DNA of 54,140 nucleotides from Chloroflexota bacterium (lineage in GTDB: Bacteria > Chloroflexota > Limnocylindria > Limnocylindrales > CSP1-4): the NCBI GenBank assembly GCA_031373765.1, contig JANMNF010000071.1, positions 1-54,140 on the forward strand, given 5' to 3'. Below, one piece after another: positions 5,829-52,861 of this stretch; the stretch's first letter is position 1; the number at the start of each line of letters is the position of its first letter. The notes below the pieces were generated by a model. That model saw only the letters and a program-made list of their open reading frames with translations. It was not told the origin of the DNA and did not search any database. Position numbers and translations under genes: made by a program.

Positions 5829-6755
5829 ATGGACCGCGAGGGCCGGCGGCACCGCTCGACCCCGCGCGGCTACACTCGAATCGTGACGACTCCCCTCGAT
5901 CCGGACCTGCCTACGCGCCACCTGACGAGCACGAAAGTGGTGGCCGTACGCGGTGTTCAACTCGAGGTCCGCGACGACATCGTCGTCGGTGAAGAGCCAC
6001 TCGAGATTCGGGCCGGCGGTCCGCGCCAGGCACCGGTCAACGTCGCGATCACAATGCGCACTCCAGGATTCGAGCAAGAGCTGGCCGTTGGTTTCCTGAC
6101 GAGCGAGGGGCTCATCGCCGGCAACGCGGTGACCGGATTCGAGACCGGCGATCCGGGATTCATGGCGGAGCCTGATGACGCAATCGTTGTCCGTCTCGTG
6201 AAGAAGCTCGATCCGGCCATCGCAAAGCAACGCAATTTTGTGGCGACCGCGTCGTGCGGGATCTGCGGCAAGGCCTCGATCGACGATGTCGCGGTCCGCT
6301 GCGAGCCGCTCCCCAAGGGCCTCCCGATCATTTCCAGGGCGGTGATCCTGTCGCTCCCCGGCGGGCTTCGCGCGGCGCAGGCGGCATTTGAGCGGACCGG
6401 CGGGCTTCATGCCGCGGGCCTGTTCGAGACCGATGGGCGCCTCGTGGTCATCCGGGAGGACGTCGGCCGCCACAACGCTCTCGACAAGGTGATCGGATCA
6501 CGGGTCATGGCAAACGAACTGCCCCTTTGGGATCGGATCCTCATGGTCAGTGGCCGCGTCAGCTTCGAGATCGTGCAGAAGGCCGCCGTCGCCGGAATCC
6601 CGATCATCTGCGCCGTGTCAGCGCCGTCGGATCTCGCCGTTCGACTCGCGGATCGACTCGGCGTGACGCTCGTCGGGTTCCTGCGGGGAGATGGATTCAA
6701 CGTGTACACGCACGATGGCCGAATCGACCTCCGCGAACTCATGGGCGTCGGCTGA
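5829..6755 (+). CDS. fdhD: Formate dehydrogenase accessory sulfurtransferase FdhD
   Basis: SCGICGKASIDD, GGLHAAGLF, REDVGRHNALDKVIG and SGRVSFEIVQKAAVAGIPII are FdhD hallmarks. The start could also be GTG 5883. Confidence 0.85.
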   Translation: MDREGRRHRSTPRGYTRIVTTPLDPDLPTRHLTSTKVVAVRGVQLEVRDDIVVGEEPLEIRAGGPRQAPVNVAITMRTPGFEQELAVGFLTSEGLIAGNAVTGFETGDPGFMAEPDDAIVVRLVKKLDPAIAKQRNFVATASCGICGKASIDDVAVRCEPLPKGLPIISRAVILSLPGGLRAAQAAFERTGGLHAAGLFETDGRLVVIREDVGRHNALDKVIGSRVMANELPLWDRILMVSGRVSFEIVQKAAVAGIPIICAVSAPSDLAVRLADRLGVTLVGFLRGDGFNVYTHDGRIDLRELMGVG

Positions 6756-7676: not shown

Positions 7677-7718
7677 AAAAGGTCCCGCGGCCCAAGACCG
7701 TGGGCCCTCGCCCGGGAC
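7677..7718 (-). terminator. Intrinsic terminator immediately after the FDH Fe-S-module gene
   Basis: Outer stem GTCCCG/CGGGAC (7682-7687 with 7713-7718) and inner stem GGCCCA/TGGGCC (7689-7694 with 7701-7706). On the minus strand the structure runs into a TTTT tract (7680-7677). It begins 1 nt after the TAG stop (7720-7722). Confidence 0.55.
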
Positions 7719-7719
7719 G

Positions 7720-8790
7720 CTAGCCGCGCCGGCGCTCGTTGGTGAATTCGAAGCCGAAGCGGCCCTTGATGCAGAGATGGCCCTCGGTCACGGACGAGTC
7801 CATCGGGGAGGACACCTTCACGATCGTGTTGTCCTGGACGTGGAGATCGAGGACGCAGCCCACACCGCAGTACGGGCAGATGGTCTCGGTCACCGTCTGC
7901 GCCGATTCGTCCCACGTGCCCTCTGCCCGCATGTCGTGCTCGGACTTGAACATGAGCGCGCCGGTTGGGCAGACGCCGATGCAGTTGCCGCAGTAGACAC
8001 AGGCGGAATCGGGGAGCGGGGTGGCCCATTCCGTCGAAATGCGGGCGTCGAAACCGCGACCGGCCACGGCGATCGCGAACGTGTTCTGGGCGTCCTCGCC
8101 GCAGGCCTCGACGCACTTGTAGCAGAGGATGCACTTCGAGTAGTCGCGGACGTAGAGTTCGTTGTCGACCTTGACGGGCTGCGCGACGGTCGCGGCGTGC
8201 ATGGCCTCGGTGCCGGTGGGCTCGTGATGGTGCCCCGGTTGGTGATCGTCCCGGACGCCGGCCGACGACGCGGCAGCCGCCGGCCCGAACCGCGATGCGT
8301 CGGCCCCGTAGCGCTCCGCCCAGCGAGCCATCTCGCCATCGGGCTGGCGGGAGCCCGCGAGTGACGTGTCAACCGACGAGCCGAGGAACTCCAGGACGAG
8401 CTTGCGCGAGTGCTGAACCCGCTCTGATTCGGTCTGGATGTCCATGCCCGGCTCGACCTTGCGAGAGCACGCCGGCACCAGGACCCGCGAACCGGTCACT
8501 TCCACCACGCAGACGCGGCAGACGTTGACGGGAGCGAGGTTCTCGAGGTAGCAGAGGGTCGGCAGGTCGAGGCCCTGGGCCCTGGCCGCTTCAAGGATCG
8601 TGACGCCCGCGGGCACTGAGACCTCGACGCCGTCGATCGTGATGGTGACGGCGGCCGGCGCTTCGACCGGTGGCACCATGGGCGTTCGCGACGCACGCGC
8701 CGGTGGAGTCGTGTAGATCGTTTCGATGGCCGGAGACATCGGCGGAGCGGGCGAGCGCACCGGGCCGCCGGCGTGGTGGTCAGCGGTCAT
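7720..8790 (-). CDS. NAD-linked formate dehydrogenase alpha subunit, N-terminal Fe-S module only
   Basis: NuoG-type 2Fe-2S motif (LCYLENLAPVNVCRVCVVEV...PACS). Two ferredoxin-type 4Fe-4S motifs (CILCYKCVEAC and CVYCGNCIGVCP). Molybdopterin-oxidoreductase 4Fe-4S domain (CPYCGVGCVLDL...LCIKGRFGFEF). The ORF stops 7 codons later, with no molybdopterin domain. ATGA overlap with the upstream gene. Confidence 0.85.
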   Translation of the reverse strand: MTADHHAGGPVRSPAPPMSPAIETIYTTPPARASRTPMVPPVEAPAAVTITIDGVEVSVPAGVTILEAARAQGLDLPTLCYLENLAPVNVCRVCVVEVTGSRVLVPACSRKVEPGMDIQTESERVQHSRKLVLEFLGSSVDTSLAGSRQPDGEMARWAERYGADASRFGPAAAASSAGVRDDHQPGHHHEPTGTEAMHAATVAQPVKVDNELYVRDYSKCILCYKCVEACGEDAQNTFAIAVAGRGFDARISTEWATPLPDSACVYCGNCIGVCPTGALMFKSEHDMRAEGTWDESAQTVTETICPYCGVGCVLDLHVQDNTIVKVSSPMDSSVTEGHLCIKGRFGFEFTNERRRG

Positions 8791-10694
8791 AGCCCCACCA
8801 GTTCTGGTTGCCGGAACGCCGATTCGATCGCGGAACTTGCCGTCTGACCGAGGCCGCAGATGCTGGCATCGCGCATGGCTCGACCCACCTCAGCGAGAAG
8901 CACAAGTTCCTCGTCCCGCGATCGTCCGCCCGTGCGGTCCGCAAGCCGCGCCAGCAGTTCCTCCTGGCGAACCGTGCCGACTCGGCAAGGCACGCATTGG
9001 CCACACGATTCGTCGCGGAAGAAGGCCGCGATCCGGCGGAGCGTGCCGACCATATCCGCGGTCTCGTCGAAGATCATCACGACCCCGGATCCGAGCGTGG
9101 CGCCTATGGCCCGCGTGCCCTCGAACGTGAGGGGCACATCCAGCGTCTCCGGACCGACGAACACGCCTGCGGCGCCGCCGAGCAGGATCGCGCGAATGGC
9201 CTTGCCGCCAGGCACACCGCCGCCGAGATCGAGCAGCTCCCGCAGCGTCGTCCCGAACGGGACCTCGTAGACGCCGGGCCAGGCGACGTTGCCGGACAGG
9301 CAGAACAGCTTCGGGCCGGTCGATCCTTCAGTCCCGGTGGCCGCGTACCGGGCGCCACCGCCGATACCGTCGCCCTCGCCCAGGATCAGGAGGACGTTGA
9401 CCAGCGTTTCGACGTTGTTGACCGCTGTCGGCTTGCCGAACAGGCCGACCTCGACCGGGAATGGCGGCTTGTTGCGCGGCTCGCCGCGCTTGCCCTCGAT
9501 GGATTCGAACAGGGCGGTCTCCTCGCCACAGATGTAGGCACCGGCGCCGCGGCGCAGCTCGATGTCGAAGGCCCAGCCGGAACCGGCGACGTCGTCGCCG
9601 AGCAGCCCATCGGCGCGTGCTGCGTCGATCGCGCCGAGCAGGCGCGCTTCCGCGAGCGGGTACTCACCGCGGAGGTAGATGTAGCCGCGCGATGCGCCCG
9701 TCGCGAAGCCCTCGATCGTCATAGCCTCGATGACCGCGAACGGATCGGCTTCGAGCAACACGCGGTCCTTGAACGTGCCGGGTTCCGACTCATCGGCATT
9801 GCACACGACGTAATGCGGCTGGACAGGCTGACTCGCGACGGCGGCCCACTTGCGGCCGGTCGGGAATGCCGCGCCGCCGCGACCAACGAGTTTCGCGTCC
9901 GTGACCTCGCGAGTAGACGCTTCGGCGCCCATTGCCATGGCGTTGGCCAGGCCTCGATAGCCGCCGTGGGTTCGGTAGTCGGCAAGGGATGTCGGATCGA
10001 CCGAACCGATGCGGGCAAGCAGTTGGAGCTCCGGACTCCCTGCCTGGGGAACGGAGGCTCGCGCGGCGGCGAGGTCCGTGGCAGAACCGGTCGAAGGATT
10101 GGCCGCCCCGGATCCGGCCAGTGCCGCTTCGAGCGCGCCGACGATCCCGACCGCATCGATCGGCGCGAGCTCTGTTCGGATGGGCGTCTCGCCGGCCACC
10201 GTCAGGAGCGCCGCGGGAGCGAGCTCGCATCGACCGAGGCACGGGCTCCGTAGCCAGGTCATGGTCCCATCCCGAGCCGGTGCGCCAGCCGGACCCAGCG
10301 ACCGGGTGAGGTCGGCGCAGATGTCCTCGGCCCCGGCCAGGCGGCAAGCGATGTCGTCGCACACGTGGGCGGCCGCCGAGGCACGAGGCTGCGTGGTGAA
10401 CAGTGCGTAGAACGTGGCAACGCCGTAGGCCTCGGCCGGAGGCACGGAAAGGCGCTTGCAGACGTAGTTCAGTCCCGGCTGGGTGATCTGACCCACGCGA
10501 TCCTGAAGCGCGTGCAGGGCGGGGAGCAGGAGGTCCCGCCGGCTTCGTGAGGCGTGGCCGCCGCGGGCCACGTGCCCGTCGAGGGCGGAGTCCCGGGCGC
10601 CCCCGGACCAGCCGGACTCCGCGGGACCGATCACCGCATCCACGGCGGCTCGCTCGGCCGGCAGGGCGAGGGGTCCGATGACGTGAAGATCCAT
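8787..10694 (-). CDS. Fused NuoE-like (2Fe-2S) / NuoF-like (FMN, NAD, 4Fe-4S) diaphorase subunit of formate dehydrogenase (FdsG-FdsB type)
   Basis: N-terminal HVCDDIACRL...SPCLGRCELAP (NuoE fold). Then GGAAFPTGRKW...VVCNADESEPGTFKDR...GAGAYICGEETAL...ESCGQCVPCRVG (NuoF motifs). Confidence 0.9.
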   Translation of the reverse strand: MDLHVIGPLALPAERAAVDAVIGPAESGWSGGARDSALDGHVARGGHASRSRRDLLLPALHALQDRVGQITQPGLNYVCKRLSVPPAEAYGVATFYALFTTQPRASAAAHVCDDIACRLAGAEDICADLTRSLGPAGAPARDGTMTWLRSPCLGRCELAPAALLTVAGETPIRTELAPIDAVGIVGALEAALAGSGAANPSTGSATDLAAARASVPQAGSPELQLLARIGSVDPTSLADYRTHGGYRGLANAMAMGAEASTREVTDAKLVGRGGAAFPTGRKWAAVASQPVQPHYVVCNADESEPGTFKDRVLLEADPFAVIEAMTIEGFATGASRGYIYLRGEYPLAEARLLGAIDAARADGLLGDDVAGSGWAFDIELRRGAGAYICGEETALFESIEGKRGEPRNKPPFPVEVGLFGKPTAVNNVETLVNVLLILGEGDGIGGGARYAATGTEGSTGPKLFCLSGNVAWPGVYEVPFGTTLRELLDLGGGVPGGKAIRAILLGGAAGVFVGPETLDVPLTFEGTRAIGATLGSGVVMIFDETADMVGTLRRIAAFFRDESCGQCVPCRVGTVRQEELLARLADRTGGRSRDEELVLLAEVGRAMRDASICGLGQTASSAIESAFRQPELVGL

Positions 10695-10751
10695 TGCGAT
10701 CGAGTGTAGCCTCGGGTGCGATCGCGCGCGGCGTTTGCCCCGGGAATCGAA

Positions 10752-10776
10752 CGACCCCCGGACGGGCCGGGGGTCG
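10752..10776 (-). terminator. GC-rich hairpin between the cold-shock gene and the diaphorase gene (possible terminator)
   Basis: 10-bp perfect stem CGACCCCCGG/CCGGGGGTCG with a 5-nt loop. The minus-strand tail TTCGATT is only weakly U-rich. Confidence 0.35.
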
Positions 10777-10806
10777 ACGGGCTGAAAGCCTGGCAGTTAT
10801 GCCGGA

Positions 10807-11010
10807 CTAGCCAGCCTGGACGTTCGTAGCACGCGGGCCCTTGGGGCTCGCCTGGACTTCGAAAGTGACAGCCTCGCCGCCGTTGAGGCGGTCGAAGTTG
10901 AGCGGTGCCTGAAGGGCATCGCGGTGGAAGAAGTATTCCTTGCCATCCTCGGCGGCGATGAAGCCAAATCCTCGGTCGGCAATGACCTTCTTGACTGTTC
11001 CTGCGGTCAC
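10807..11010 (-). CDS. Cold-shock protein (CspA family)
   Basis: GTVKKVIADRGFGFIAAEDGKEYFFH carries the RNP1/RNP2 motifs. 67 aa. Confidence 0.9.
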   Translation of the reverse strand: MTAGTVKKVIADRGFGFIAAEDGKEYFFHRDALQAPLNFDRLNGGEAVTFEVQASPKGPRATNVQAG

Positions 11011-11302
11011 ATTGACCCCTTTGTCTTCCCGAACTGATCTAGAGGCGCACGGCCTGTTCGAGAAGCAGGTCGACCACGCGGAGCATCATCGCGCATCGCA
11101 ATGACCAGCGAAGAGTACGCGGGATCCGGGATTCGTGGGCTGGACGGCTGGCACCGAGAGGACCACGCGCTTCACCGCCGGGCCACTTCGGCAGTCAGAT
11201 GACTCGGCTGAGGCCCTGTTGGATCAGGAACAGAATGATCGGAAGGAGAACAGCCGACAGGAATCCGGTCAGGGCGACCCGATCCGGCGTGTTCAACCTG
11301 GC

Positions 11303-11323
11303 TAATGTGCTACCTTGTGCTAC
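11303..11323 (+). promoter_or_regulatory. Putative antitoxin operator: direct repeat TGTGCTAC x2 abutting the start codon
   Basis: TGTGCTAC at 11306-11313 and 11316-11323 (10-bp register). TAATGT (11303-11308) could be a -10 box. The ATG follows directly at 11324. Confidence 0.4.
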
Positions 11324-11626
11324 ATGACGGAATCGAACACGGGACCGGCGAGGGTTGGTGTCCGGGACCTGCGCCAGAACCTCAGTGTGTACCTCGACCG
11401 CGTGAAGGCCGGCGAAACGCTCGAGGTGACCGAGCACGGTCATCCTGTCGCTCGGCTTGCGCCGAGCCCACCGAAGGCGCTCTCGATCCTTGATCAGATG
11501 ATCGCCGACGGTCTTGTGACGCCGGCGAAATTCGACCATCGCCTGATCCCGCCGCCGCCGAGTATCCCAGGCTCCCGGCCGCTGTCCGAGATCATCATCG
11601 AGATGCGAGATGAGGACGAGCGGTGA
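11324..11626 (+). CDS. Type II antitoxin, Phd/YefM family
   Basis: VGVRDLRQNLSVYLDRVKAGETLEVTEHGHPVARL is a typical Phd/YefM N-terminus. The stop overlaps the toxin start (GTGA). Confidence 0.8.
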   Translation: MTESNTGPARVGVRDLRQNLSVYLDRVKAGETLEVTEHGHPVARLAPSPPKALSILDQMIADGLVTPAKFDHRLIPPPPSIPGSRPLSEIIIEMRDEDER

Positions 11627-12015
11627 CAGCGCTCGCCTACGTGGACGCGTCCGCACTCGCCAAACTCGTGCTCGACGAGCCGGGTGCCGTCGAGATGCGC
11701 CGCTGGTATGTCGAAAGCGAACGGGTGGTGACGAGCAGGATCGGCATTATCGAGACGCGACGTGCCTGCTCCAGACAGGAGTTCGATGCTCGTCACCTCG
11801 AAGTCATCCTGGAGTCGGTCGAGACCGCAGAGCTCACCACTCGCATCGCCGACGCCGCGGCCATCCTCGGAGCGCCGACCCTCCGCACCATCGATGCGAT
11901 CCACGTCGCGACGGCGCTCCAGCTCGTGCCGGACCTCGACGCATTCGTGACCTACGACGACCGTCTCGCCGACGCGGCGCGGGCGCTCGGGCTTCCGGTG
12001 GTTCGCCCAGCCTGA
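11623..12015 (+). CDS. vapC: PIN-domain ribonuclease toxin (VapC)
   Basis: YVDASALAKLV...E...RTIDAIHVATA...FVTYDDRL carries the conserved acidic PIN residues. 130 aa. Confidence 0.8.
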   Translation: MTALAYVDASALAKLVLDEPGAVEMRRWYVESERVVTSRIGIIETRRACSRQEFDARHLEVILESVETAELTTRIADAAAILGAPTLRTIDAIHVATALQLVPDLDAFVTYDDRLADAARALGLPVVRPA

Positions 12016-12025
12016 GGGCGCAGGC

Positions 12026-14023
12026 TCAAACCGCCGGGACGGGCTCCCCGAGTTTCTCGATCCGGATGGCCGTGGCCTTGAATTCGGCCGTGCCGGATTT
12101 GGGGTCAACGGCGTCGATGGTGAGCAGGTTGACCGCGACATCGTCCTGGAAATGGAGGGTCATGAACGTGAGACCGGGTCGAAGACCCTCGTCAACCCGC
12201 ACCGGCACCTCGATCTGGCCGCGCCGGGACGTAACTCGCACCCGCTCACCCTCCACGAGATCGAAGCGGACGAGATCCTCGGGCGACATGTCGAGCGTCT
12301 CGCCGCGCCGCAGCGGCGACTTCAGGCTGCCGCTCTGGACACCCGTGTTGTAGCTGTCGAGCCGGCGCCCGGTCGTGAGGCGGATAGGGAAGTCGGCATC
12401 GAGCTTGTCGACCGGCGGGTCATGGTCCACGGGAACGAACGGCACGCGACTCCCCGGAACCGGGTCTTCCCACAGGCGTGAGTGCAGGAACTGCTCGCCC
12501 GGGTGCGTTTCGTCCCAGCACGGCCACATGATCCCACCCAGCTCCTCGAGCCTGGCGTAGGTCATGCCCTTGTGCACCGGCGAGAGCGACCGAACTTCGT
12601 CCCAGACCAGTTCTGCCGAGGGCTCGCCCCAGTCGTGGCCCATGCGTCGCGCGAGCTCGAACAGGATCCACAGATCGTCCCGTGCATCGCCAGGGGGGTT
12701 GAGCGCCTTCCGCACGCGCTGCACGCGCCGTTCGGAATTCGTGACCGTGCCTTCGGATTCAGCCCACGCGGCGGAGGCGGGAAAGACCACATCGGCCATC
12801 TCTGCCGTCGCCGTCAGGAACAGGTCCTGTACGACCATGAACTCGAGGCCGCCGATGAGCTCCTTCGTTCGCTTCTGGTCCGCTTCGGACTGGACCGGGT
12901 TCTCTCCGATGACGTACGCGGCCTTGAGCTCGCCGCGCTCCATGGCATCGAACATCTGGGACAGGTGCAGGCCCTTCAACGGCGGGACGGGCACGCCCCA
13001 CGCTGCATCGAACTTGGCGCGCAGTTCGTCCCGCTCGACGAACTGGAATCCCGGCAGGCGATCCGGCAAGGCGCCCATGTCGCCACCGCCCTGAACGTTG
13101 TTCTGGCCGCGCAGCGGGCTGAGGCCGCTGCCGTATCGCCCGACGTGGCCGGTCAGCAGGGAGAGCGAGATGAGGGCGAGGACGTTGTCGACGGCGTTGT
13201 GGTGCTCCGTGATCCCGAGCGTCCAGCACAGCATCGCGCGCGGCGCCTTCGCGTAGGCGTGGGCCAGCTCGCGGATGGCCGAGGCAGGAACGCCGGTCTC
13301 GCGCTCCGCATATTCGAGGGTGTACGACTCGACCTTGTCGCGATAGGCGTCGAAATCGAACGTCGCGCGCTCGATGAATTCGGTGTTGGCAAGGCCGGCA
13401 TGAATGATCTCGCGTCCCACGGCGTTGGCGAGAGCGATGTCGCTGCCGACGTCGAGGCCGAGCCACGTGTCGGACCACTCCGCCGAGCTCGTCCGGCGCG
13501 GGTCTACGGTAAAGAGACGGGCTCCGTTGCGGACCCCGCGCAGCAGGTGATGGAAGAAGATCGGATGCGTCTCCCGGGCATTGCTGCCCCAGAGGATGAT
13601 CAGATCGGTTTCCTCGACCTCACGATATGAGCTGGTTCCACCACCAGCGCCGAAGACGGTCGCCAGACCGGCGACAGACGGGGCGTGTCAGGTGCGGTTG
13701 CAGCTGTCGATGTTGTTGCTGCCCAGGACCACCCGAGAGAACTTCTGCGCGGCGTAGTTGACCTCGTTGGTCGCCTTGCTGCAACTGAAGACTCCGAACG
13801 GCGCGTGCGTATCGGGGGCCCTGCGGGCACCGATGGCGCGAAACGCCGTGACGGTCCGATCGAGCGCCTCATCCCAGGTTGCGGGACGGAGCTCGCCGCC
13901 CTTCGTCTCGCGGACGAGGGGCTGGGTCAGGCGAACATACGACTTCGGCAAGGGTTCCGTGCCTCCGTGCTCTGGCTCGCCGGGGACGGCGAACTGGTTC
14001 GTCACCGCCAAGGCTGACGGCAT
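12026..14023 (-). CDS. Selenocysteine-containing formate dehydrogenase catalytic (molybdopterin) subunit lacking its own Fe-S domain; UGA at 13688-13690 read as Sec
   Basis: Track ORFs 13688..14023 and 12026..13420 share one frame, which is open from 13687 to 12026. Translation across the UGA gives GSNNIDSCNRT-U-HAPSVAGLATVFGAGGGTSSY, matching the FdhF active site (CARVUHGPSVAGL). Downstream motifs (ILWGSNARETHPI, CWTLGITEHHNAVDNV, LRGQNNVQGGGDMG) are typical of the formate dehydrogenase family. Confidence 0.85.
13655..13687 (-). other. Bacterial SECIS hairpin directly 3' of the Sec UGA
   Basis: mRNA reads UGA CAC GCC CCG UCU GUCGCC-GGUCU-GGCGAC. The 6-bp stem (13675-13670 with 13664-13659) has a GGUCU apical loop, as in the E. 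coli fdhF SECIS. A possible lower stem is CCG/CGG. Confidence 0.7.
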
Positions 14024-14128
14024 GGCGAGTGTACTTGCCGGGACGCGGGATCGGCTTCCGCGGATGCGCGCGATCGTGAGGTGCGACGGCCTCCGGCAGA
14101 CGGCGGCCGTGTGCGTTGCCGAACGACG

Positions 14129-15058
14129 TCAGACCCCGAAACGCCTCAGATATTCACGGTTCGCGCGCTGAACCGCGACGACAGATTCGGGCGTGTCGGC
14201 CGCGCGAAGATACTGATCCTGCTCGATGACGAGCCATCCAGCGTAGTCATGGCTCCGAAGGGCATCGATGACCGAATCGATCCCAGAGTCTCCGGTGCCC
14301 AACTGGCAGAAGACCCCGCGACGGAGGGCTTCCTCGAGACCTTTGCCTTCTGCCTTCACGTCGTCCATGACCTTCGTGGTGCAATCCTTGATATGGACGT
14401 GGCGAATCACTTCGTGGTAGTCGTGTACCGCCTGGGTCGGGTCGGCGCCGCCAAACCGGAAATGGCCCGTGTCGAGGCACAGCCCGAGCAACGAGGGATC
14501 GATCCGATCCATCACTCGAGCGATCTCGTCAGCCGATTCGACGTAGGTTCCAGCGTGTGGATGAAGGACCACATCGAAGCCCATCGACTGGCAGAGTTCT
14601 GCAGCTCGATGGAGATTGTTGATGAGAGCTTCGAACCGAGCTGGCGAGAGCCACGTTTCCGGATGTGCCGGGATCCGACCCGAGAATGCCCGGCGGTCGG
14701 GCTCATCGAACTGGTCGGAGAGAATTGCCAAGGGTCGCGACCCGTCTGGAGAACCTTCACGCACCAACTTCAGGCTGTCGGCTAGCCAGGTTCGATCGTC
14801 TTCCGCCAGCTCATTCCGACTGAAGTGCTGCGGAAGGAAGGAGCCAACGAGTTCCAATCCTCGGGACGACAGGCGCTGACGTAGCTGCTCAGCATCCCCG
14901 AGGTAGCCAGGCGGGCCGAGCTCCGTGCCCTCGACGCCGATGTCGACGAGCCAATCAAGCACGTCCTCCGGTCCGGGCATCCAGGCGTCGTCGACCATGA
15001 TCTCGTCCACCCCGAACGACACCGGGGCCCCGGCGACACGCATCCGAGCGTTTGACAT
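14129..15058 (-). CDS. IolE-like sugar phosphate isomerase/epimerase (xylose-isomerase-like TIM barrel; probable inosose dehydratase)
   Basis: GTELGPPGY...HPHAGTYVE...LCLDTGHFRFGG...HVHIKD...GWLVIEQD is the metal-binding pattern of the AP-endonuclease-2/IolE fold. Confidence 0.75.
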   Translation of the reverse strand: MSNARMRVAGAPVSFGVDEIMVDDAWMPGPEDVLDWLVDIGVEGTELGPPGYLGDAEQLRQRLSSRGLELVGSFLPQHFSRNELAEDDRTWLADSLKLVREGSPDGSRPLAILSDQFDEPDRRAFSGRIPAHPETWLSPARFEALINNLHRAAELCQSMGFDVVLHPHAGTYVESADEIARVMDRIDPSLLGLCLDTGHFRFGGADPTQAVHDYHEVIRHVHIKDCTTKVMDDVKAEGKGLEEALRRGVFCQLGTGDSGIDSVIDALRSHDYAGWLVIEQDQYLRAADTPESVVAVQRANREYLRRFGV

Positions 15059-15214: not shown

Positions 15215-16636
15215 TTGCGGATGCTCATCGCGGGTGAGTGGACAGACGGTGCTATCCGTGAAGACGTCACGAATCCGTTCAACGGCGACGTGATCGACAC
15301 GGTGCCGGTTGCGTCGCGGGCGGACGTTGATCGCGCGCTCGCAGCCGCGGTAGGGGCGGCCGACCGCCAGCGCCATACCGCAGCCTACGACCGTCAGGCG
15401 ATCCTGCTCCGCGCGGCCGACCTCGCGGACGAGCGGGTTGAGGATCTGGCTCGAACGATCTCGCTCGAGTCGGGAAAGCTCCTGACCGAGGCGACCGGCG
15501 AAGCCTCCCGGGCCGGCGACATGCTTCGTCTGGCTGCGTTCGAGGGCGCTCAGCTCTACGGCGACAGCCTCCCGCTCGACGCACACCGCGGCGCCGGGCA
15601 GGGTCGACTTGGTTTCACGCTCAGGCAGCCGTGTGGGGTGGTCGTCGCGATCACGCCATTCAACTACCCCTCGTTACTCGTCTTGCACAAGATCGCGCCT
15701 GCACTGGCCGCGGGTAACGCGGTCATCCTCAAGCCCGCGCGCAAGACGCCTCTGACGGCGCTCAAGCTTGCCGAGATTCTTCTCGACGCCGGCCTCGATC
15801 CCGAGGCGATCTCCTGTGTAACGGGCTCAGGAGCCGAACTCGGTGCGCAACTGTGTAGCGATCCGCGCGTGCGGAAGATCAGTTTCACCGGCAACTCGGC
15901 AACCGGCCAGGCGATCACCCGGGTTGCCGGAGTGAAGCGCCTGTCCCTGGAGCTCGGGGCCAGTTGTCCCGTCATCGTCCTGCCGGATGCCGACCTCGAA
16001 CTTGCCGCCAGGGCGGTCTCCATTGGCGGCTACGTGAACGCCGGTCAGGTCTGCATTTCGGTCCAGCGAGTCCTCGTCGACCGGACGGTCATGAGTGACT
16101 TCCTTGATGCGCTGACGCCGCTCGTCAAGGCGATCCGTACCGGTGATCCCCTCGATCCCCAGACGACGGTCGGCGTCCTGGTCAGCGATGTCGAGGCGCG
16201 GCGGGTGGAGCAGGCGATCAACGCGAGTGCCGCGGCCGGGTCGCGCGTGTTGGTTGGTGGCGAGCGCGAAGGAACGATGCTCCGGCCAGCCGTCGTGGCA
16301 GACGTCGATCCGGCGAGCCCATTCAGCCGCGACGAGCTATTCGGACCGGCCGTGGCCGTCTCACCGGCATCGGGAATGGACGACGCCATCCGACTTGCCA
16401 ACGACAGCCCGTACGGCCTCGGTGCCGGCGTCTTCACTCGAGACGTGACAAGCGCGCTGCGCTTCGCGCGGGAAGTGGACGCAGGTATGGTGCACATCAA
16501 CTGGACTCCGCTTTGGCGGGCCGATCTGATGCCGTACGGCGGCCTCAAGAACAGCGGAATCGGCAAGGAAGGCGCGCGCTCGGCGGTCGAGGAGATGACG
16601 GAGTCAAAGACGATCATCCTTCATGGAGCGAGCTGA
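15215..16636 (+). CDS. NAD(P)-dependent aldehyde dehydrogenase
   Basis: ALDH family: FNYPSLLVLHKIAPALAAGNAV, SFTGNSATG, catalytic LELGASCP and NAGQVCISVQR. The true start may be ATG 15221. Confidence 0.85.
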   Translation: MRMLIAGEWTDGAIREDVTNPFNGDVIDTVPVASRADVDRALAAAVGAADRQRHTAAYDRQAILLRAADLADERVEDLARTISLESGKLLTEATGEASRAGDMLRLAAFEGAQLYGDSLPLDAHRGAGQGRLGFTLRQPCGVVVAITPFNYPSLLVLHKIAPALAAGNAVILKPARKTPLTALKLAEILLDAGLDPEAISCVTGSGAELGAQLCSDPRVRKISFTGNSATGQAITRVAGVKRLSLELGASCPVIVLPDADLELAARAVSIGGYVNAGQVCISVQRVLVDRTVMSDFLDALTPLVKAIRTGDPLDPQTTVGVLVSDVEARRVEQAINASAAAGSRVLVGGEREGTMLRPAVVADVDPASPFSRDELFGPAVAVSPASGMDDAIRLANDSPYGLGAGVFTRDVTSALRFAREVDAGMVHINWTPLWRADLMPYGGLKNSGIGKEGARSAVEEMTESKTIILHGAS

Positions 16637-16654: not shown

Positions 16655-18553
16655 ATGCCCTCGACGGTCCGATTGACGACCGCGCAGGCGATCATTCGAT
16701 ACCTCGGCCGGCAGCACACCGTCGCGGACGGCGAGCGGGCGCGCTCCGTGCCGGCAATGCTCGGCATCTTCGGCCACGGCAACGTCGCCGGGCTCGGCCA
16801 GGCCCTCGATGAGTTCCGGGCAGAGATGCCATATGTTCAGGGCCGCAACGAGCAGTCTCTGGTCCACGTTGCGACCGCGTTTGCCAAGGCATCGCGCCGG
16901 CGGGCCGTGCTCGCCGTCACCGCGTCCGTCGGGCCGGGCGCCACGAACATGGTCACGGGTGCGGCGCTTGCCACGATCAACCGCCTGCCGGTGCTCCTGC
17001 TGCCCGGCGACACTTACGCCACTCGCCGCCAGGGTCCGGTACTCCAGCAGCTGGAGCACCCGTCCGCAGGCGACATCTCCGTGAACGACTGCTTCCGACC
17101 GGTGGCTCGCTACTTCGACCGGATCACGCGCCCGGAGCAGGTCCTTACGGCTCTGCCCGAAGCGATGCGAGTCTTGACAAACCCGTCCGAAATGGGTGCC
17201 GTGGTCATCGCCCTGCCGCAGGATATCCAATCAGAGGCGTACGACTATCCCGCAGCGTTCTTCGCGCCTGCCGACTGGGTCATCGCGCGCCCAGCTCCGG
17301 ATCTCGAGGCCGTGGCCGCGGTGGCTCACCTACTCGCCGAGGCCCATCGCCCGCTGATCGTGGCCGGAGGGGGCGTCCACTACTCCGAGGCTGGGGAGGC
17401 GCTGGCAGGGCTTGCGGGGGAGTTCGGGATCCCTGTTACCGAGACGTTTGCCGGCAAGGGCGCTGTGGAGACCGATGCCTGGTGGGGCATGGGTGGCATT
17501 GGCGTGGAGGGAAATCCGGCGGCAAACAAGCTCGCCGCCGAGGCCGATCTCGTCCTTCACGTGGGCACGCGCCTGACGGACTTCACGACTGCCTCCCAGT
17601 CCATCTTCGCGGATCCTGCGGTCCGATTCGCCTCCATCAACGTGACCGACCATGACGCGCGCAAGCAAGGTGCCCTGCCAATCGTCGCCGACGCTCGTCG
17701 GGCGCTGCTGGCGCTCGTTACCGCGGCACGGGATGCGGGTGTCCGGCCACGGCCCACGTGGGAGGCACGCGCTCGGGAAGTCAAGTCTGCCTGGCTGCCG
17801 ACGCGAGCTGTGGCCCTCGCCGCCCCGGGGCCGGACCGGTTCGGCGGGGAAAGCCTAATGACGCAGGGCCAGCTGATTGGGATCCTCCAGGATGCGGCCC
17901 GGCCGGGTGACACGATCGTCGCTGCCGCTGGCGGACCCCCCGGCGACTTGCTCAAGGTCTGGGACGCGACCGGCGGCAGGTCGTGCCACCTCGAGTTCGG
18001 GTATTCGTGCATGGGCTATGAGCTTCCGGCGACCCTCGGGGTACGCCTTGCCCAGCCCGACGGCGCGGTGATGGCGCTGATTGGCGACGGGACGTTCCTC
18101 ATGCAGCCGACCGAACTGGTCACTGCCCTGCAGGAAGGTCTGAACGTGACGGTGGTGGTCTCGGAGAACCACGGCTTCCAGGTCATCCGGCGTCTTCAGT
18201 TGATGCGCAATGGCGCGGGATTCGGGAACGAGTTCCGCGGACGAACCGGGCCGCTCGCGACTGGCGCGCTGGATGGCCCATACCTCGATCTCGACCTCGT
18301 TGCCCTGGCTGCCGGGCTTGGGGCACGGGCCACCAGGGCCGGAACGCCGGACGCTATCCGTACCGCTCTGGAAGAGGCCCGGTCCCACCCCGGTCCGAGC
18401 GTCATCGTCGTCGCGACGGATCCCGACGTGAACTTGCCGTCCTCGGGCGTGTGGTGGGATGTCGCTTCGGCCGAAGTGTCGGACGTGACGGCCGTGGCGG
18501 AGCGACGACGCGAATACGAGGCAGGGCTCGCCAGTCAGCGATGGCATGGCTGA
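16655..18553 (+). CDS. iolD: IolD paralog 1: ThDP-dependent 3D-(3,5/4)-trihydroxycyclohexane-1,2-dione acylhydrolase
   Basis: VRLTTAQAIIRYL...IFGHGNVAGLGQAL...GPGATNMVTGAA...IGDGTFLM. The length (632 aa) and N-terminus are typical of IolD. Confidence 0.85.
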   Translation: MPSTVRLTTAQAIIRYLGRQHTVADGERARSVPAMLGIFGHGNVAGLGQALDEFRAEMPYVQGRNEQSLVHVATAFAKASRRRAVLAVTASVGPGATNMVTGAALATINRLPVLLLPGDTYATRRQGPVLQQLEHPSAGDISVNDCFRPVARYFDRITRPEQVLTALPEAMRVLTNPSEMGAVVIALPQDIQSEAYDYPAAFFAPADWVIARPAPDLEAVAAVAHLLAEAHRPLIVAGGGVHYSEAGEALAGLAGEFGIPVTETFAGKGAVETDAWWGMGGIGVEGNPAANKLAAEADLVLHVGTRLTDFTTASQSIFADPAVRFASINVTDHDARKQGALPIVADARRALLALVTAARDAGVRPRPTWEARAREVKSAWLPTRAVALAAPGPDRFGGESLMTQGQLIGILQDAARPGDTIVAAAGGPPGDLLKVWDATGGRSCHLEFGYSCMGYELPATLGVRLAQPDGAVMALIGDGTFLMQPTELVTALQEGLNVTVVVSENHGFQVIRRLQLMRNGAGFGNEFRGRTGPLATGALDGPYLDLDLVALAAGLGARATRAGTPDAIRTALEEARSHPGPSVIVVATDPDVNLPSSGVWWDVASAEVSDVTAVAERRREYEAGLASQRWHG

Positions 18554-45241: not shown

Positions 45242-46315
45242 TCAGCCGAGGACCACGCCAGGACCGGCCACGCCGGCCGTTTCGACCTGACCGACGAGCC
45301 AGCTCGGGACCCCGCGCGCCTCCAGGGCGGCGACGACGCCATCGAGTTTGTCGGGCGAGATCGCGGCCAATAGGCCGCCCGAGGTCTGCGGGTCATGTGC
45401 CAGGGTGACGAGGTCCTCGCCAACACCCATCGCGATCGTCAGTACTGGCGCGACGAACCGCCGATTGTGTGCCGCCCCGCCCGTTTCCATGCCGGCACGA
45501 GCCAGGTCGAGCGCGCCGTCGAGGGCCGGGAGGGAGGCGGAATCGAATACGAATCGCGTTCCGGAGCCACAAGCCATCTCGAGTCCGTGGCCCAGCAATC
45601 CAAAGCCGGTCACGTCGGTCGCGGCTCGCACGCCGTGCTCCGTGAGCACTTCGGCAGCATCTCGATTGAGGACGGTCATCTGATCCGTGGCCGCGACCAG
45701 GTGCGCGTCCGAGGTCCGTCCGTGGCGCCGTCCCGAGACCAGCAATCCCGTGCCGAGCCGCTTCGTGAGGAGCAGCTGGTCGCCCGGCTCCGCGGCGCCC
45801 TTGCGCAGGAGACGGTCCGGGTGTGCGGCACCGATCACGGCGAGTCCATATTTCGGCTCGGGATCCTTGATCGTGTGGCCGCCCGCGAGCGTGCCCCCGG
45901 CCTCGCGGACCTTGGCCGAGGCGCCCTCGAAGATCGCTGCGAGCGTGTCCCGAGGCAGATCCTCGGGGAATGCGGCAATCGACAGCGCGAACAACACCCG
46001 CCCGCCCATCGCGAAGATATCGGACAAGGCATTTGCCGCCGCGATCTCGCCGTACAGGCGCGGATCGTCCACCAGCGGTGGAAAGAAGTCGAGCGTGCCG
46101 ATGATCGCGAGATCCGGCGAAACGAGATACGCGGCGGCGTCGTCGGGCGGGTTCAGGCCGGCGATCAACTCGTCTGGCGCTACCTGCGCGCCGAGCCCGG
46201 AGAGCGCGTCGGCGAGCAGGTCGGCACCGAGCTTCGCGGCACACCCGCCGCAGTCGGTCATCTCGGTCAGGCGCCTTGCACGGGGGAGCTTCAGCGACGG
46301 GACGTCAGCGGTCAT
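45242..46315 (-). CDS. selD: Selenide, water dikinase SelD (Cys form)
   Basis: LTEMTDCGGCAAKLG aligns with the SelD N-terminal Cys/Sec-Lys loop. DAAAY, ALSDIFAMGG, LAGGHTI, TDVTGFGLLGH and DPQTSGGLL follow. The start is uncertain (ATG 46315 or 46342). The longer track ORF is Arg-rich upstream. Confidence 0.85.
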   Translation of the reverse strand: MTADVPSLKLPRARRLTEMTDCGGCAAKLGADLLADALSGLGAQVAPDELIAGLNPPDDAAAYLVSPDLAIIGTLDFFPPLVDDPRLYGEIAAANALSDIFAMGGRVLFALSIAAFPEDLPRDTLAAIFEGASAKVREAGGTLAGGHTIKDPEPKYGLAVIGAAHPDRLLRKGAAEPGDQLLLTKRLGTGLLVSGRRHGRTSDAHLVAATDQMTVLNRDAAEVLTEHGVRAATDVTGFGLLGHGLEMACGSGTRFVFDSASLPALDGALDLARAGMETGGAAHNRRFVAPVLTIAMGVGEDLVTLAHDPQTSGGLLAAISPDKLDGVVAALEARGVPSWLVGQVETAGVAGPGVVLG

Positions 46316-46445
46316 GCCCGGATGATAGGCCGGGGTACCCATATGGCCCGCGAACGGCACACGGCCCCCGACTTCGATGGGGCGTCGCGTTGACGGTCTC
46401 CCGCCGTGATGGTTGACTGGGTTCCCTAGTTGAGTTGCCGAACCC

Positions 46446-48671
46446 GTGTCCGACCGTCTCCTCGTCGTATCCAATCGCCTGCCCCTGACCACACGCCGCG
46501 CCGGAACCGAATGGCATGCCGACCTGAGCAGTGGCGGCCTCGTAGCCGCCCTCACGCCGGTCATGGAACGCGCCAAGGGTCTGTGGATCGGCTGGCCCGG
46601 TGATGCGCCATCCGGCGATACCGCTGGTCGCGACGCGCTGCTCCGGTCCTGGGAGAAGCAGCATCGGTTCGTCTCCGTCGATCTCCCGCCCAAGATCACC
46701 CGCGCCTTCTACGAGGGCTACAGCAACAACACGATCTGGCCGCTCCTCCACGGCTTTCCGACCCTCGTCAGCTTCGATCGAGAAACCTGGCATGCCTATC
46801 GCGATGCGAACGAGCGCTTCGCGGCAGCCGTCCTCGAGCGCACGAAGCCCGGCGACCTCGTATGGATCCACGACTACCAGCTGATGCTCGTCCCGAGCCT
46901 GCTCCGGGCGGCTCGCCCCGACATCCGGATCGGCTTCTTCCTGCACGTGCCGTTCCCGCCCGCCGAGGTCTTCCGGATCCTTCCGCAGCGTGAGGAGGTC
47001 CTCAATGGCCTGCTCGGGTCTGACCTGATCGGATTCCAGACTCATGAGCACCTCGGCGCGTTCCGGCGAACGCTCCTCCAGGTACTCGGCACCGACAGCC
47101 GGATGGATCGGGTCGAGGTGGACGGGCGGGTGGTATCGCTGGAGGCGCACCCCATCGGGATCGTGACCGACGAGTGGGAGCGACTCGTCACCTCGGACAA
47201 GTCGGTGGGCAAGCGCGTCGCCGACCTCAGGGCGCGGCACGCCGGCCGAAAGCTGGTTCTCGCGGTCGATCGGCTCGATTACACGAAGGGCATCCCGGAG
47301 CGACTCCGAGCGTTCCGGCAATTCCTCATCACGCGCCACGAGTGGCGCGGAAGGGTGACCATGATCCAGGTCGCGGTCCCATCGAGGGAACGCATTCCGC
47401 GCTACGTCGAACTGCGGCGCGAGGTCAGCGAGCTCGTCGGCGAGCTCAACGGGGAGCTTGGTACGGCGACCTGGAACCCGGTCATCTACCTCCGACGGTC
47501 CATTTCCCGGTCCGAGCTCGCTGCTCTCTACGCGGCCGCTGACATCGCCTGGATCGCATCGCTCCGGGACGGGATGAACCTGGTGGCCAAGGAGTTCGTG
47601 GCCTGCCAGCAGGAACGGGCAGGCGTGCTCCTGCTCAGCGAGTTCGCCGGCGCCGCGGGCGAAATGGGCGAGGCGATCCGGGTCAATCCATACGACGAGC
47701 AGGGCTCGGCCGAAGCTCTCGAACGGGCGCTGATGATGCCCGAGGATGAGCGACACGAACGGCAGCGCGCGCTGCTGGCGCGCGTTCGGCGGAGCAATGC
47801 GATCACCTGGGCGGAGGGCTTCGTTGCGGAACTGAAGGCCGCCGCAGCCGACCGCAACATCGCCAGCGGGCCGGTGGGCGAGCCGAAGTTGGTGGCGCTC
47901 CGACGCGCCTTCCGGTCGGCAAAGCGGCGGGTCTGCTATCTCGACTACGACGGAACCCTGGTTCCGCTTGCCGCCCGACCGGCCGATGCGGTGCCCAGCC
48001 ACGCCGTCAGCGAGATCGTCGGATCCCTAGCCAAGAAGCGCGGGACCACCGTGGTGATCGTCTCGGGACGGCCTGCGGTGGACCTCGAGCGCTGGTTCGG
48101 GCATCTGCCGAGCGTGTGGTTGGCCGCGGAACACGGCGCGCTCCTGCGCGAGCCCGGCAGCACCGAGTGGCAGTCGCTCCGTCCCGGTGCGGGCACGGAC
48201 TGGAAGGATCGCGTTCGGCCCGTCCTCGAGCACTTCGCAGCCCGCGCGCCCGGGAGCACGGTCGAGGAGAAGGACTACGCGCTGGCGTGGCACTACCGCC
48301 TGGTCGAGCCGGAATTCGGAACGTGGCTATCGAACGAACTCGGCGTCACGCTGGATCAACAACTGGCCGGCACCGAGCTTGCGGTCCTGCGCGGCAGCAA
48401 GGTCATCGAGATCCGCTACGCCTGGGCAAACAAGGGCGAGGTCGTATCCCACGTCCGATCGATCGGCGATGCCCCGGAGTTCGAACTGGCCATCGGCGAT
48501 GACCGAACCGACGAGGACATGTTCGATCGCCTGCCGCCCGAGGCATGGACCATCCACGTCGGGACCGGACAGACGCGCGCTCGATACGCGGTCCCGGGTC
48601 CGGCGGCCGCCCTCTCCCTCATCGCAGCACTCGCCGGCGCATCATCCGCGGCCGAGCGCGCCGCCGACTGA
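46446..48671 (+). CDS. Bifunctional trehalose-6-phosphate synthase / phosphatase (OtsA-OtsB fusion)
   Basis: GT20 motifs (VVSNRLP, GGLVAAL, GFFLHVPFP, DGMNLVAKEF) followed by a HAD phosphatase (YLDYDGTL, IVSGR, GDDRTDEDMF). Confidence 0.9.
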   Translation: MSDRLLVVSNRLPLTTRRAGTEWHADLSSGGLVAALTPVMERAKGLWIGWPGDAPSGDTAGRDALLRSWEKQHRFVSVDLPPKITRAFYEGYSNNTIWPLLHGFPTLVSFDRETWHAYRDANERFAAAVLERTKPGDLVWIHDYQLMLVPSLLRAARPDIRIGFFLHVPFPPAEVFRILPQREEVLNGLLGSDLIGFQTHEHLGAFRRTLLQVLGTDSRMDRVEVDGRVVSLEAHPIGIVTDEWERLVTSDKSVGKRVADLRARHAGRKLVLAVDRLDYTKGIPERLRAFRQFLITRHEWRGRVTMIQVAVPSRERIPRYVELRREVSELVGELNGELGTATWNPVIYLRRSISRSELAALYAAADIAWIASLRDGMNLVAKEFVACQQERAGVLLLSEFAGAAGEMGEAIRVNPYDEQGSAEALERALMMPEDERHERQRALLARVRRSNAITWAEGFVAELKAAAADRNIASGPVGEPKLVALRRAFRSAKRRVCYLDYDGTLVPLAARPADAVPSHAVSEIVGSLAKKRGTTVVIVSGRPAVDLERWFGHLPSVWLAAEHGALLREPGSTEWQSLRPGAGTDWKDRVRPVLEHFAARAPGSTVEEKDYALAWHYRLVEPEFGTWLSNELGVTLDQQLAGTELAVLRGSKVIEIRYAWANKGEVVSHVRSIGDAPEFELAIGDDRTDEDMFDRLPPEAWTIHVGTGQTRARYAVPGPAAALSLIAALAGASSAAERAAD

Positions 48672-48749
48672 GCGGGGAGTCGGGCCGCGGGACCGCGGGC
48701 ACGCCGGGAACCGCTGGGAGCGGGAATTCACGAGCCGCTACGATGAAGC

Positions 48750-48846
48750 GGGAGTGGGTTCGGGCCGGTGCCCGGTCCGGTCTTCAAAACCGGTGGCGCG
48801 GCGCTTGGCGTCGCGCGGTGGGTTCGACTCCCATGCGCTCCCGCCA
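48750..48846 (+). tRNA. selC: tRNA-Sec (anticodon UCA)
   Basis: 97 nt. Acceptor GGGAGTGG/GCGCTCCC (8 positions, one terminal mismatch). 6-bp D stem TCGGGC/GCCCGG with 4-nt loop. Anticodon arm CCGGT-CTTCAAA-ACCGG. 24-nt variable arm. 5-bp T arm GTGGG-TTCGACT-CCCAT. Discriminator G and encoded CCA. Confidence 0.9.
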
Positions 48847-48864
48847 CGATCCACAGGAGGCTCC

Positions 48865-50286: not shown

Positions 50287-50291
50287 CCGCC

Positions 50292-52256: not shown

Positions 52257-52861
52257 TGCAGGCTGTACCGATGTTCGACGATGTCACCGCGGTCGTCCTG
52301 GCCGGCGGTCGGTCCTCACGATTCGGGTCCGACAAGCTGGCCTTCGAGATCGATGGCCGAACGATGCTGGACCATGCCGTCGCCGCAGTCGGGGCGGTGA
52401 CCTCGCACGTCATCCTCGTCCTGGCGCCCGGCACCGAGATGCCGCTGGCACTCGCTCCGGCAGTCGCGGGACACGTGCATGACGCAACGGCATTCGAGGG
52501 GCCGCTCGCCGGCCTCGCCGCTGCGCTTGCCGTGATCGAGACGCCGGTCGCACTGGTGGTCGCCGGGGACATGCCCAGGATGGTCCCGGCAGTCCTTCAG
52601 CGCCTTGCCTCGACGGTGGGAGCAGACCGACCGGCAGTCAACCTCGAGGTCCCGCGTCGCATGCAGCCGTTGCCCATGGCGATCTCGGTCGAGGCGGCCC
52701 GGCCTGCGGTGGCGGCTCTTCTTGAGCGTGGCGAGCGCTCGCTTCGGGCGCTGCTCACGGAACTCGGTACCTCCTCGATCCCGGCTCCGGTCTGGCTCAG
52801 CCTGGACCCGGCCGGGATCACGATCCTGGACGTGAACCGACCCGGCGACCTGCGCGGATAG
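52253..52861 (+). CDS. mobA: Molybdenum cofactor guanylyltransferase MobA
   Basis: VVLAGGRSSRFGSDK, GPLAGL, VVAGDMPRM. ATGA-type overlap with the selB stop. Confidence 0.8.
   Translation: MMQAVPMFDDVTAVVLAGGRSSRFGSDKLAFEIDGRTMLDHAVAAVGAVTSHVILVLAPGTEMPLALAPAVAGHVHDATAFEGPLAGLAAALAVIETPVALVVAGDMPRMVPAVLQRLASTVGADRPAVNLEVPRRMQPLPMAISVEAARPAVAALLERGERSLRALLTELGTSSIPAPVWLSLDPAGITILDVNRPGDLRG

Follow-up and report, generated by a model that had tools for sequence, protein, structure and literature searches.

The closest described relatives of the enzyme considered here are formate dehydrogenases (FDHs) built from NuoE-, NuoF- and NuoG-like modules. In FdsABG(D) of Rhodobacter capsulatus and Cupriavidus necator (6TG9, 6VW7), the alpha subunit FdsA is a single chain of 958 amino acids (aa) that joins NuoG/HoxU-like Fe-S domains, the FS0 cluster domain and an FdhF-like molybdenum (Mo)-pterin part, while the NuoF- and NuoE-like diaphorase modules are separate proteins, FdsB and FdsG. 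PMC7171172 gives the cofactor chain of the R. capsulatus enzyme (RcFDH) as bis-molybdopterin guanine dinucleotide (bis-MGD), A1 (FS0), A2, A3, A5 (a [2Fe-2S] cluster), B6 and flavin mononucleotide (FMN); it places a further cluster, A4, outside the direct chain at the dimer interface, and divides FdsA at a seam between a HoxU-like part of 250 residues and an FdhF-like part of 700 residues that includes FS0. In Fdh1AB (W-FDH1) of M. extorquens AM1 (7VW6, 7E5Z), the beta subunit is a NuoE/NuoF fusion and the alpha subunit a single chain of 989 aa with a NuoG-like N-terminus. Here we analyse a stretch of 54,140 nucleotides (nt), henceforth the window, from contig JANMNF010000071.1 (GCA_031373765.1) of a Chloroflexota bacterium (CSP1-4), with a G+C content of ca. 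67 %, in which the alpha subunit of an FDH of this kind is encoded by two genes and breaks between FS0 and the pterin domains.

The genes concerned lie on the minus strand between 14023 and 7720, in the order catalytic half (alpha-C, 12026-13951), cspA (10807-11010), a NuoE/NuoF fusion (beta subunit, 635 aa, 8787-10694) and Fe-S half (alpha-N, 356 aa, 7720-8790), with a VapB (Phd/YefM) and VapC (PIN) pair on the opposite strand (11315-12015). This content and order had been claimed in an earlier note on this DNA, made from its letters alone, and our scans of open reading frames (ORFs) and domains agree with it. The earlier note also placed the break at a domain boundary, and four independent rulers put it at one point. 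The FS0 profile (PF04879) is covered from position 2 to 54 of 55 on one protein, and PF00384 begins on the other with its profile position 1, which is the R of RLTQPLVR, where the note had the catalytic part join the family. On the 672 positions of TIGR01591, the Fe-S half spans 1-53 and the catalytic half 53-672; on R. capsulatus FdsA (6tg9_A) the halves align to 15-305 and 308-933, so that the single chain of FdsA corresponds to two genes broken at FdsA 305/308; and on P0262, a fused metagenomic relative, they align to 8-281 and 281-905. On E. coli FdhH (1aa6_A), the catalytic half aligns from residue 61 on. Beyond ca. five linker residues, the two halves show no loss and no duplication. Protein trans-splicing was considered and rejected: the tail of the Fe-S half is short, variable and of low complexity, and alpha-C starts six residues before RLTxPLVR.

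We compared the 120 best homologues of the Fe-S half from the window (76-96 % identity, 324-422 aa) and the 120 best of the Fe-S half from a member of the Bryobacterales (304-392 aa), together with 83 related loci, 80 of which are the best of 319 GTDB species with a relative (one genome per species, 63-94 % identity). All 240 listed homologues end with PF04879 and none has PF00384; no fused alpha subunit was found among them or among the 83 loci. In every fetched locus with the stop codon on the contig, the Fe-S gene stops a few residues past GRFGFEF, not counting a variable tail of low complexity (0-68 aa), and every locus with enough upstream DNA has the catalytic half, NuoEF and the Fe-S half in this order on one strand. 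Most of the 80 species genomes are metagenome-assembled genomes (MAGs) of Chloroflexota, class Candidatus Limnocylindria (best match 94 %), to which the window itself evidently belongs, and the other carriers belong to Actinomycetota, Acidobacteriota, Planctomycetota, Dormibacterota and others. In most loci from Actinomycetota, Acidobacteriota and Planctomycetota the three genes abut, the catalytic gene and NuoEF being 11-183 nt apart, and this abutting operon is the simplest form of the layout. A gene for FdhD, a sulfurtransferase and FDH maturation factor, adjoins the operon in most related loci and lies just upstream of it in those from Actinomycetota; in the window it is convergent with the Fe-S half (5829-6755, plus strand). 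In pairwise comparisons of the window with nine relatives, the ratio of nonsynonymous to synonymous substitution rates (dN/dS) is 0.06-0.19, with like values for the three genes, indicating that all three are under purifying selection.

The split is, then, not specific to the source genome or locus; it is an old architecture common to several phyla. The earlier note had proposed to search related genomes for two genes as against a fused fdsA, and the two-gene split was found throughout the 240 listed homologues and the 83 loci. This is the opposite of the combination of fused relatives and a decaying source genome that the note gave as a refutation of its proposal. Its preference for a functional fission over a pseudogene is upheld by the lack of any fused relative in this set, the universal order, the low dN/dS and the single stop codon, that for selenocysteine (Sec), in 53/53 catalytic halves. 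Among representatives of clusters at 50 % identity, mostly metagenomic fragments, the full-length fused proteins share 37-45 % identity with the Fe-S half, and the nearest fused protein found shares 44 % with the catalytic half. One metagenomic protein, P0137 (1405 aa), has a complete fused FdhA followed by a second Fe-S module and the start of a second pterin domain, i.e., a tandem arrangement with a catalytic part ahead of an Fe-S part; it keeps PF10588, which places it outside the split family.

The catalytic half has 641 codons, including that for Sec, followed by a stop. It contains the Molybdopterin (PF00384, E 2.4e-65) and Molydop_binding (PF01568, E 2.1e-25) domains, matches TIGR03129 weakly, and has no FS0 domain (CxxCxxxC...C), of which the complete copy lies on the other polypeptide. 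The ORF running from 14023 to 12026 has a single in-frame TGA (13688-13690), after DSCNRT, which is kept at the aligned position in 53/53 loci and is the only in-frame stop of each of the 53 distinct sequences. Across these sequences 220/641 residues are invariant, among them Sec and the following His (U88-H89) and R281 of PLRGQNNVQG. A hairpin resembling a Sec insertion sequence (SECIS) starts 16 nt after the UGA (13659-13675, minus strand; GUCGCC-GGUCU-GGCGAC), with six base pairs and a loop, GGUCU, that is invariant in 16 sequences; in these, 0/6 pairs are broken and two pairs show compensatory synonymous double changes. The Sec codon and SECIS are thus intact, as the earlier note had read them, and the in-frame UGA, the hairpin downstream of it and the genes for tRNA-Sec, SelA, SelB and SelD, all in the window, together are what is expected of a selenoprotein gene. 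Gene callers cut the catalytic half at the UGA, leaving fragments of 87-107 aa and 495-542 aa.

The start of the catalytic gene had been put at ATG 14023, with about 27 unrelated residues ahead of the conserved part and no strong Shine-Dalgarno sequence. Both points have to be revised. When the upstream regions of 53 loci are aligned, conservation begins at codon 13951, where 50/53 loci have TTG, GTG or ATG and the remaining three have an ATG one codon off; many loci have no in-frame start farther upstream, and the ca. 24 residues encoded between 14023 and 13951 are not conserved. A GGAGG-like Shine-Dalgarno sequence (mostly GGAGG, in some GAGG or AGGAG) lies at most ca. 12 nt upstream in most loci, and in the window GGAGG (13962-13966, minus strand) stands 10 nt upstream of TTG 13951. 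Judging from this alignment, TTG 13951 is almost certainly the true start, giving a predicted N-terminus, M-PKSYV-RLTQPLVR, with six residues ahead of the conserved motif. No signal or Tat motif is visible at the N-terminus of either half.

The Fe-S half contains Fer2_4 (aa 47-122), two [4Fe-4S] ferredoxin motifs (aa 216-279) and a complete Molybdop_Fe4S4 (FS0) domain (aa 299-351), and terminates 10 residues past GRFGFEF. Its best match in PDB is R. capsulatus FdsA (6tg9_A, E 4e-47). The ligands of the [2Fe-2S] cluster are C80, C91, C94 and C108, those of the two [4Fe-4S] clusters C220/223/226/230 and C264/267/270/274, and those of FS0 C305/308/312/340; all sixteen, as well as Lys342 of LCIKG, are invariant across the Fe-S halves of the family. 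In FdhH-type enzymes this Lys links FS0 to the pterin. The start of the gene overlaps the stop of NuoEF by 4 nt (ATGA). Downstream of its own stop there is a GC-rich hairpin followed by UUUU (7677-7718, minus strand), which the earlier note took for a dedicated terminator and used as an argument for fission. The hairpin is indeed stable (-39.5 kcal/mol, z -3.4) and could plausibly act as a terminator in this genome; its U-tract, however, is no longer than four U, it was not called as a terminator in a consensus promoter/terminator scan, and relatives carry a different sequence at this site, so that as an argument for fission it has little weight.

FdsABG has the His-ligated A4 cluster at its dimer interface, whereas the split enzyme lacks the ligands for it. 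The corresponding domain, PF10588 (A4 of RcFDH, N5 of complex I), has no match in the Fe-S half, and in all family members compared the HxxxCxxCx5C ligand motif is replaced by SSVDxS-LAG plus an insert of ca. 45 aa; fused relatives carry DHPNDCQTCQADGDC where the split family has SSVDxS-LAG. The insert (region of aa 139-205; 8176-8376 of the window, minus strand) includes a GERD...PGHHH motif that is conserved across phyla, and it might either bind a metal or simply fill the lost dimer interface. Since A4 is off the main path in RcFDH, the predicted electron path is complete despite the loss of this cluster, but by analogy the dimer contact and inter-protomer link of the RcFDH type are probably absent from the split enzyme.

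The beta subunit comprises a thioredoxin-like [2Fe-2S] module, the FMN/NAD(H)-binding Complex1_51K domain, SLBB and the N3-type [4Fe-4S] domain NADH_4Fe-4S. The NuoE-like module (PF01257) occupies aa 51-164, and its Cx4C...Cx3C motif reads VCDDIAC...SPCLGRC in the translation. With TIGR01959 the protein scores 428.8 bits, under the cut-off of 558.65 for a true NuoF, and no NCBIfam model reaches its own cut-off for any of the three proteins. Among the matches of the beta subunit, C. necator FdsB ranks second, and those to HydB and NfnB are restricted to the NuoF core. An electron-bifurcating complex of the Bfu type (HydABC or HylABC-FdhF2) was rejected: NADH_4Fe-4S lies at aa 552-628 and the chain ends seven residues later, so that the NuoF part lacks the additional 2x[4Fe-4S] ferredoxin domain at its C-terminus. 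In five metagenomic cluster representatives (P0130, P0132, P0165, P0192 and P0268), the C-terminal domains of NuoF are followed by the Fe-S half in one predicted protein, and P0132 likewise stops 5 aa past FS0. Such proteins may be real fusions of NuoEF with the Fe-S half or frameshift artefacts at the ATGA overlap.

The main cofactor chain of the split enzyme is predicted to be like that of FdsABG, although the latter has Cys at the active site where the split enzyme has Sec, has a different gene order and keeps FdsB and FdsG apart where the split enzyme has NuoE and NuoF fused; no FdsD was seen with the split enzyme. Fdh1AB resembles it in the fused beta subunit and the NuoG-like N-terminus of alpha, and differs in its single alpha chain with Cys; both Fdh1 subunits match the window proteins, yet by bit score each half has closer relatives than Fdh1AB. 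In PDB the catalytic half is matched best by FdhF of the hydrogen-dependent CO2 reductase (HDCR) (7qv7_S, 475 bits) and FdhH (1aa6_A, 458 bits), so that by sequence it is slightly nearer to FdhF-type subunits than to the FdsA/Fdh1 type. E. coli FdhH, HDCR FdhF (Thermoanaerobacter) and FdhF2-HylABC likewise use Sec and have the catalytic subunit and the Fe-S relay on different polypeptides, but in them FS0 is at the N-terminus of the catalytic chain, whereas in the split enzyme it is on the relay subunit. In FwdB/FwdD (FmdB/D), the fold that binds Mo or tungsten (W) with bis-pyranopterin guanine dinucleotide (bisPGD) is also divided over two subunits, the C-terminal part of the Methanothermobacter enzyme being a separate subunit according to PMC7171172; this break, however, is at the other end, separating the C-terminal cap and leaving FS0 in FwdB. 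NuoG/Nqo3 has the same N-terminal Fe-S fold followed by N7, the equivalent of FS0, but in NuoG a degenerate pterin domain, with neither cofactor nor catalytic Sec/Cys, is in the same chain. The split, reordered layout was not found described in the portions of full-text literature searched or in NCBIfam, an absence that is not proof of novelty.

We weighed four other explanations for the locus. The earlier note had allowed for a rearrangement pseudogene, i.e., a fused fdsA-type gene recently broken in the source genome, with its pieces decaying. The unrelated genes between the pieces, including a toxin-antitoxin pair, and an ATG 14023 devoid of a Shine-Dalgarno sequence would fit this, but the conserved start and Shine-Dalgarno sequence at 13951 dispose of the latter, and the identical break and order in all 83 related loci from several phyla (with identities of 63-94 %, which exclude copies of one mis-assembled template), the dN/dS of 0.06-0.19, the 53 catalytic halves without extra stops or frameshifts and the intact Sec machinery are contrary to decay. 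The layout could also be an artefact, either a mis-joined contig or a Sec UGA taken for the end of a gene, and gene callers do cut the catalytic half there; the break, however, is 88 codons upstream of the UGA, a real stop codon follows the Fe-S half, and 80 independent assemblies, some with contigs as long as 1-3.6 Mb, show the same break. The conserved break, the selection, the single Sec stop and the intact Sec machinery refute both of these explanations, and we give either of them next to no credence. It is improbable, if less so, that the locus holds two independent modules, with NuoEF and the Fe-S half forming a free-standing diaphorase or ferredoxin-like unit whose FS0 is vestigial (as N7 in complex I), and the catalytic half acting alone or with another partner. 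Mo-bisPGD enzymes such as DorA, TorA and BisC work without FS0, the Limnocylindria catalytic gene is apparently transcribed apart, 0.4-6 kb away, and some metagenomic relatives seem to fuse NuoF with the Fe-S half. Yet the units co-occur in every locus with enough flanking sequence and abut in other phyla, their boundaries complement each other exactly, nothing being lost or shared between them, the evolutionary rates of the three genes are equal, and the invariance of the four FS0 Cys and the Lys is unexpected for a vestigial cluster.

The three-gene layout might instead be primitive, and single-chain FdsA and FdhA later fusions. The family is old and spans phyla, and the nearest fused proteins found share no more than 37-45 % identity with the Fe-S half and 44 % with the catalytic half. 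On the other hand, FS0 is N-terminal on the catalytic chain in all other branches of the Mo/W-bisPGD family encountered here, namely FdhH, HDCR FdhF, F420-FDH, Nap and Nas, as in positions 1-53 of TIGR01591; the family shows derived losses, such as that of the A4 cluster ligands; and the seam of FdsA, as drawn in PMC7171172, is before FS0 and not after it. Because the break is one domain further in than this seam, we favour secondary fission, and consider a never-fused ancestor unlikely, although marginally less so than the two independent modules.

We therefore read the locus, with a probability of roughly 85 %, as encoding a working, Sec-containing, cytoplasmic FDH of the NuoEFG-related kind (FdsABG/Fdh1AB), with Mo or W bound by bis-pyranopterin and with its alpha subunit made as two polypeptides. 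Several points weigh against this reading. Assembly of the two halves in trans is an inference from sequence comparisons. Homology to NuoF is the ground for assuming NAD+ or NADP+ as the acceptor. Both halves score under the curated NCBIfam cut-off for an Fdh alpha subunit (TIGR01591; 631.8 bits for the catalytic half and 54.4 for the Fe-S half against 666.25), the shortfall matching the 52 missing profile positions. In the source genome the catalytic gene is 1.3 kb from the other two and is probably on a separate transcript. For the Fe-S half, AlphaFold2 with an alignment of 34 sequences gave a model too poor to use, with a mean predicted local distance difference test score of 52.3 and a predicted template modelling score of 0.49. 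Lastly, no cultured carrier or characterised enzyme with the split layout was identified in a cluster look-up, which returned only MAGs and generic names.

The FDH proposed here would be a three-subunit cytoplasmic enzyme of alpha-C, alpha-N and the NuoEF-fused beta, its activity probably being the oxidation of formate or the reduction of CO2. By docking, alpha-N would place FS0 onto alpha-C and so restore domain I of the fold as it is usually found. Formate would yield its electrons to the Sec-ligated Mo/W-pterin, from which they would pass to FS0 via the conserved Lys of LCIKG, then along the pair of [4Fe-4S] clusters and the [2Fe-2S] cluster, and so reach the [4Fe-4S] cluster and FMN of NuoF and lastly NAD(P)+, with the reverse direction also possible; the centres predicted for beta are FMN, an N3-type [4Fe-4S] and an N1a-type [2Fe-2S]. 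As to its history, the architecture is ancient and found across phyla; in Limnocylindria, insertions, here VapBC and a cold-shock gene, have moved the catalytic gene away, and this gene and the nuoEF/Fe-S pair are now under apparently separate promoters. The operon of M. extorquens Fdh1 has the order alpha then beta. As a speculation, an alpha-beta operon that was duplicated in tandem and then lost its two ends could have given rise to the permuted order of the split genes.

In Limnocylindria, 0.4-6 kb of variable DNA separates the catalytic gene from nuoEF, a stretch that behaves as an insertion hotspot. At this position, the cold-shock gene is restricted to roughly the 22 loci closest to the window, and apart from the window a single genome (represented by two loci, L002 and L013) has VapBC there; in the window, the VapBC pair lies 11 nt from the stop codon of the catalytic gene. 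Judged by this distribution, cspA and VapBC are later, lineage-specific insertions and not part of the design. Situated just upstream of nuoEF, cspA has a Shine-Dalgarno sequence of its own, AAAGGGG, and a hairpin that resembles a terminator, GACCCCCGG...CCGGGGGTC with TTCGATT after it.

A scan of the window with consensus models called no sigma-70-type promoters, and the candidate boxes described here came from the comparison of loci. All loci of the Limnocylindria type (the window and L001-L066) have TACACT, TAGACT or TAAACT 6-8 nt upstream of the nuoEF start and no Shine-Dalgarno sequence; in the window the box is TACACT (10703-10708, minus strand), 8 nt upstream of ATG 10694. By contrast, the compact operons found in other phyla have Shine-Dalgarno sequences between genes and no internal boxes of this type. 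This suggests that the nuoEF/Fe-S-half pair is expressed as a leaderless transcript from a candidate promoter, and that this transcript arose when the ancestral operon was interrupted. A similar box is found 36-86 nt upstream of the catalytic gene across loci, and in the window a candidate -10 box, TACACT, identified by sequence conservation only, is at 14028-14033 (minus strand). Between it and the start codon there would be a 5′ leader of ca. 76 nt (13952-14027), which here and in the closer relatives (L002, L006, L007, L011, L015, L036 and L060) has two conserved hairpins with a few compensatory changes. A permissive Rfam scan gave no credible match for this leader, which may be a lineage-specific regulatory element.

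Upstream of the catalytic gene there is a xylose-isomerase-like TIM-barrel gene (AP_endonuc_2; 14129-15058, minus strand), which ends 178 nt before TTG 13951 and is also present in L002; beyond it are two long plus-strand ORFs (15215-16636 and 16655-18553). A compact cluster of selenium and cofactor genes occupies 45242-52861. It contains a selD-like gene with AIRS and AIRS_C domains (45242-46699, minus strand; ORF bounds, the true start being probably further in) and, on the plus strand, a trehalose-6-phosphate synthase/phosphatase fusion (46446-48671), tRNA-Sec with anticodon UCA (48750-48846), selA (49138-50286, the SelA-domain portion of ORF 48187-50286), selB (50292-52256, an EF-Tu-like GTPase with the SelB winged-helix domain) and a gene for a MobA-like NTP transferase (52253-52861), acting in the guanylyltransferase step towards the bis-MGD cofactor, whose start overlaps the selB stop. 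The tRNA-Sec was the sole match in an Rfam scan of the window at the gathering threshold, and no second FDH-like gene was found in the window.

The layout is real, conserved and widespread and is apparently undescribed, whereas its modules are familiar. With less confidence than for the enzyme itself, we lean towards regarding it as a distinct class of soluble FDH that is widespread among uncultured bacteria of soil and groundwater (Limnocylindria, Actinomycetota, Acidobacteriota, Planctomycetota and Dormibacterota). In such a class the FS0 next to the metal site would be delivered by another polypeptide, the first electron step would cross a subunit interface, a conserved His-rich insert would replace the dimer-bridging His-ligated cluster, and the FS0-bearing relay would be part of the diaphorase module, maybe fused to NuoF in some relatives; a Mo/W-bisPGD enzyme divided at the FS0/pterin junction would thereby be known from nature for the first time. 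In the FDHs of solved structure found here, and in the nitrate reductases among them, FS0 is always on the metal-pterin chain, and this N-terminal segment is counted as belonging to the catalytic fold. A conserved family with FS0 on another subunit shows that the FS0/pterin junction can open with function kept, and it would offer a natural test case for electron transfer across this interface and for the assembly and maturation of a split fold (FdhD, cofactor insertion and Sec). A soluble, Sec-dependent enzyme that oxidises formate or reduces CO2 is also under-called by current family models: neither half passes the cut-off for an Fdh alpha subunit, and the only names that databases give the Fe-S half are '2Fe-2S iron-sulfur cluster-binding protein', 'YjgC' and 'HndD'. 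The formate metabolism of abundant uncultured soil lineages may consequently be under-counted in metagenome annotation and, if the proposed enzyme is real, its catalytic subunit would be a natural modular 'plug-in' useful for engineering CO2-reducing enzymes.

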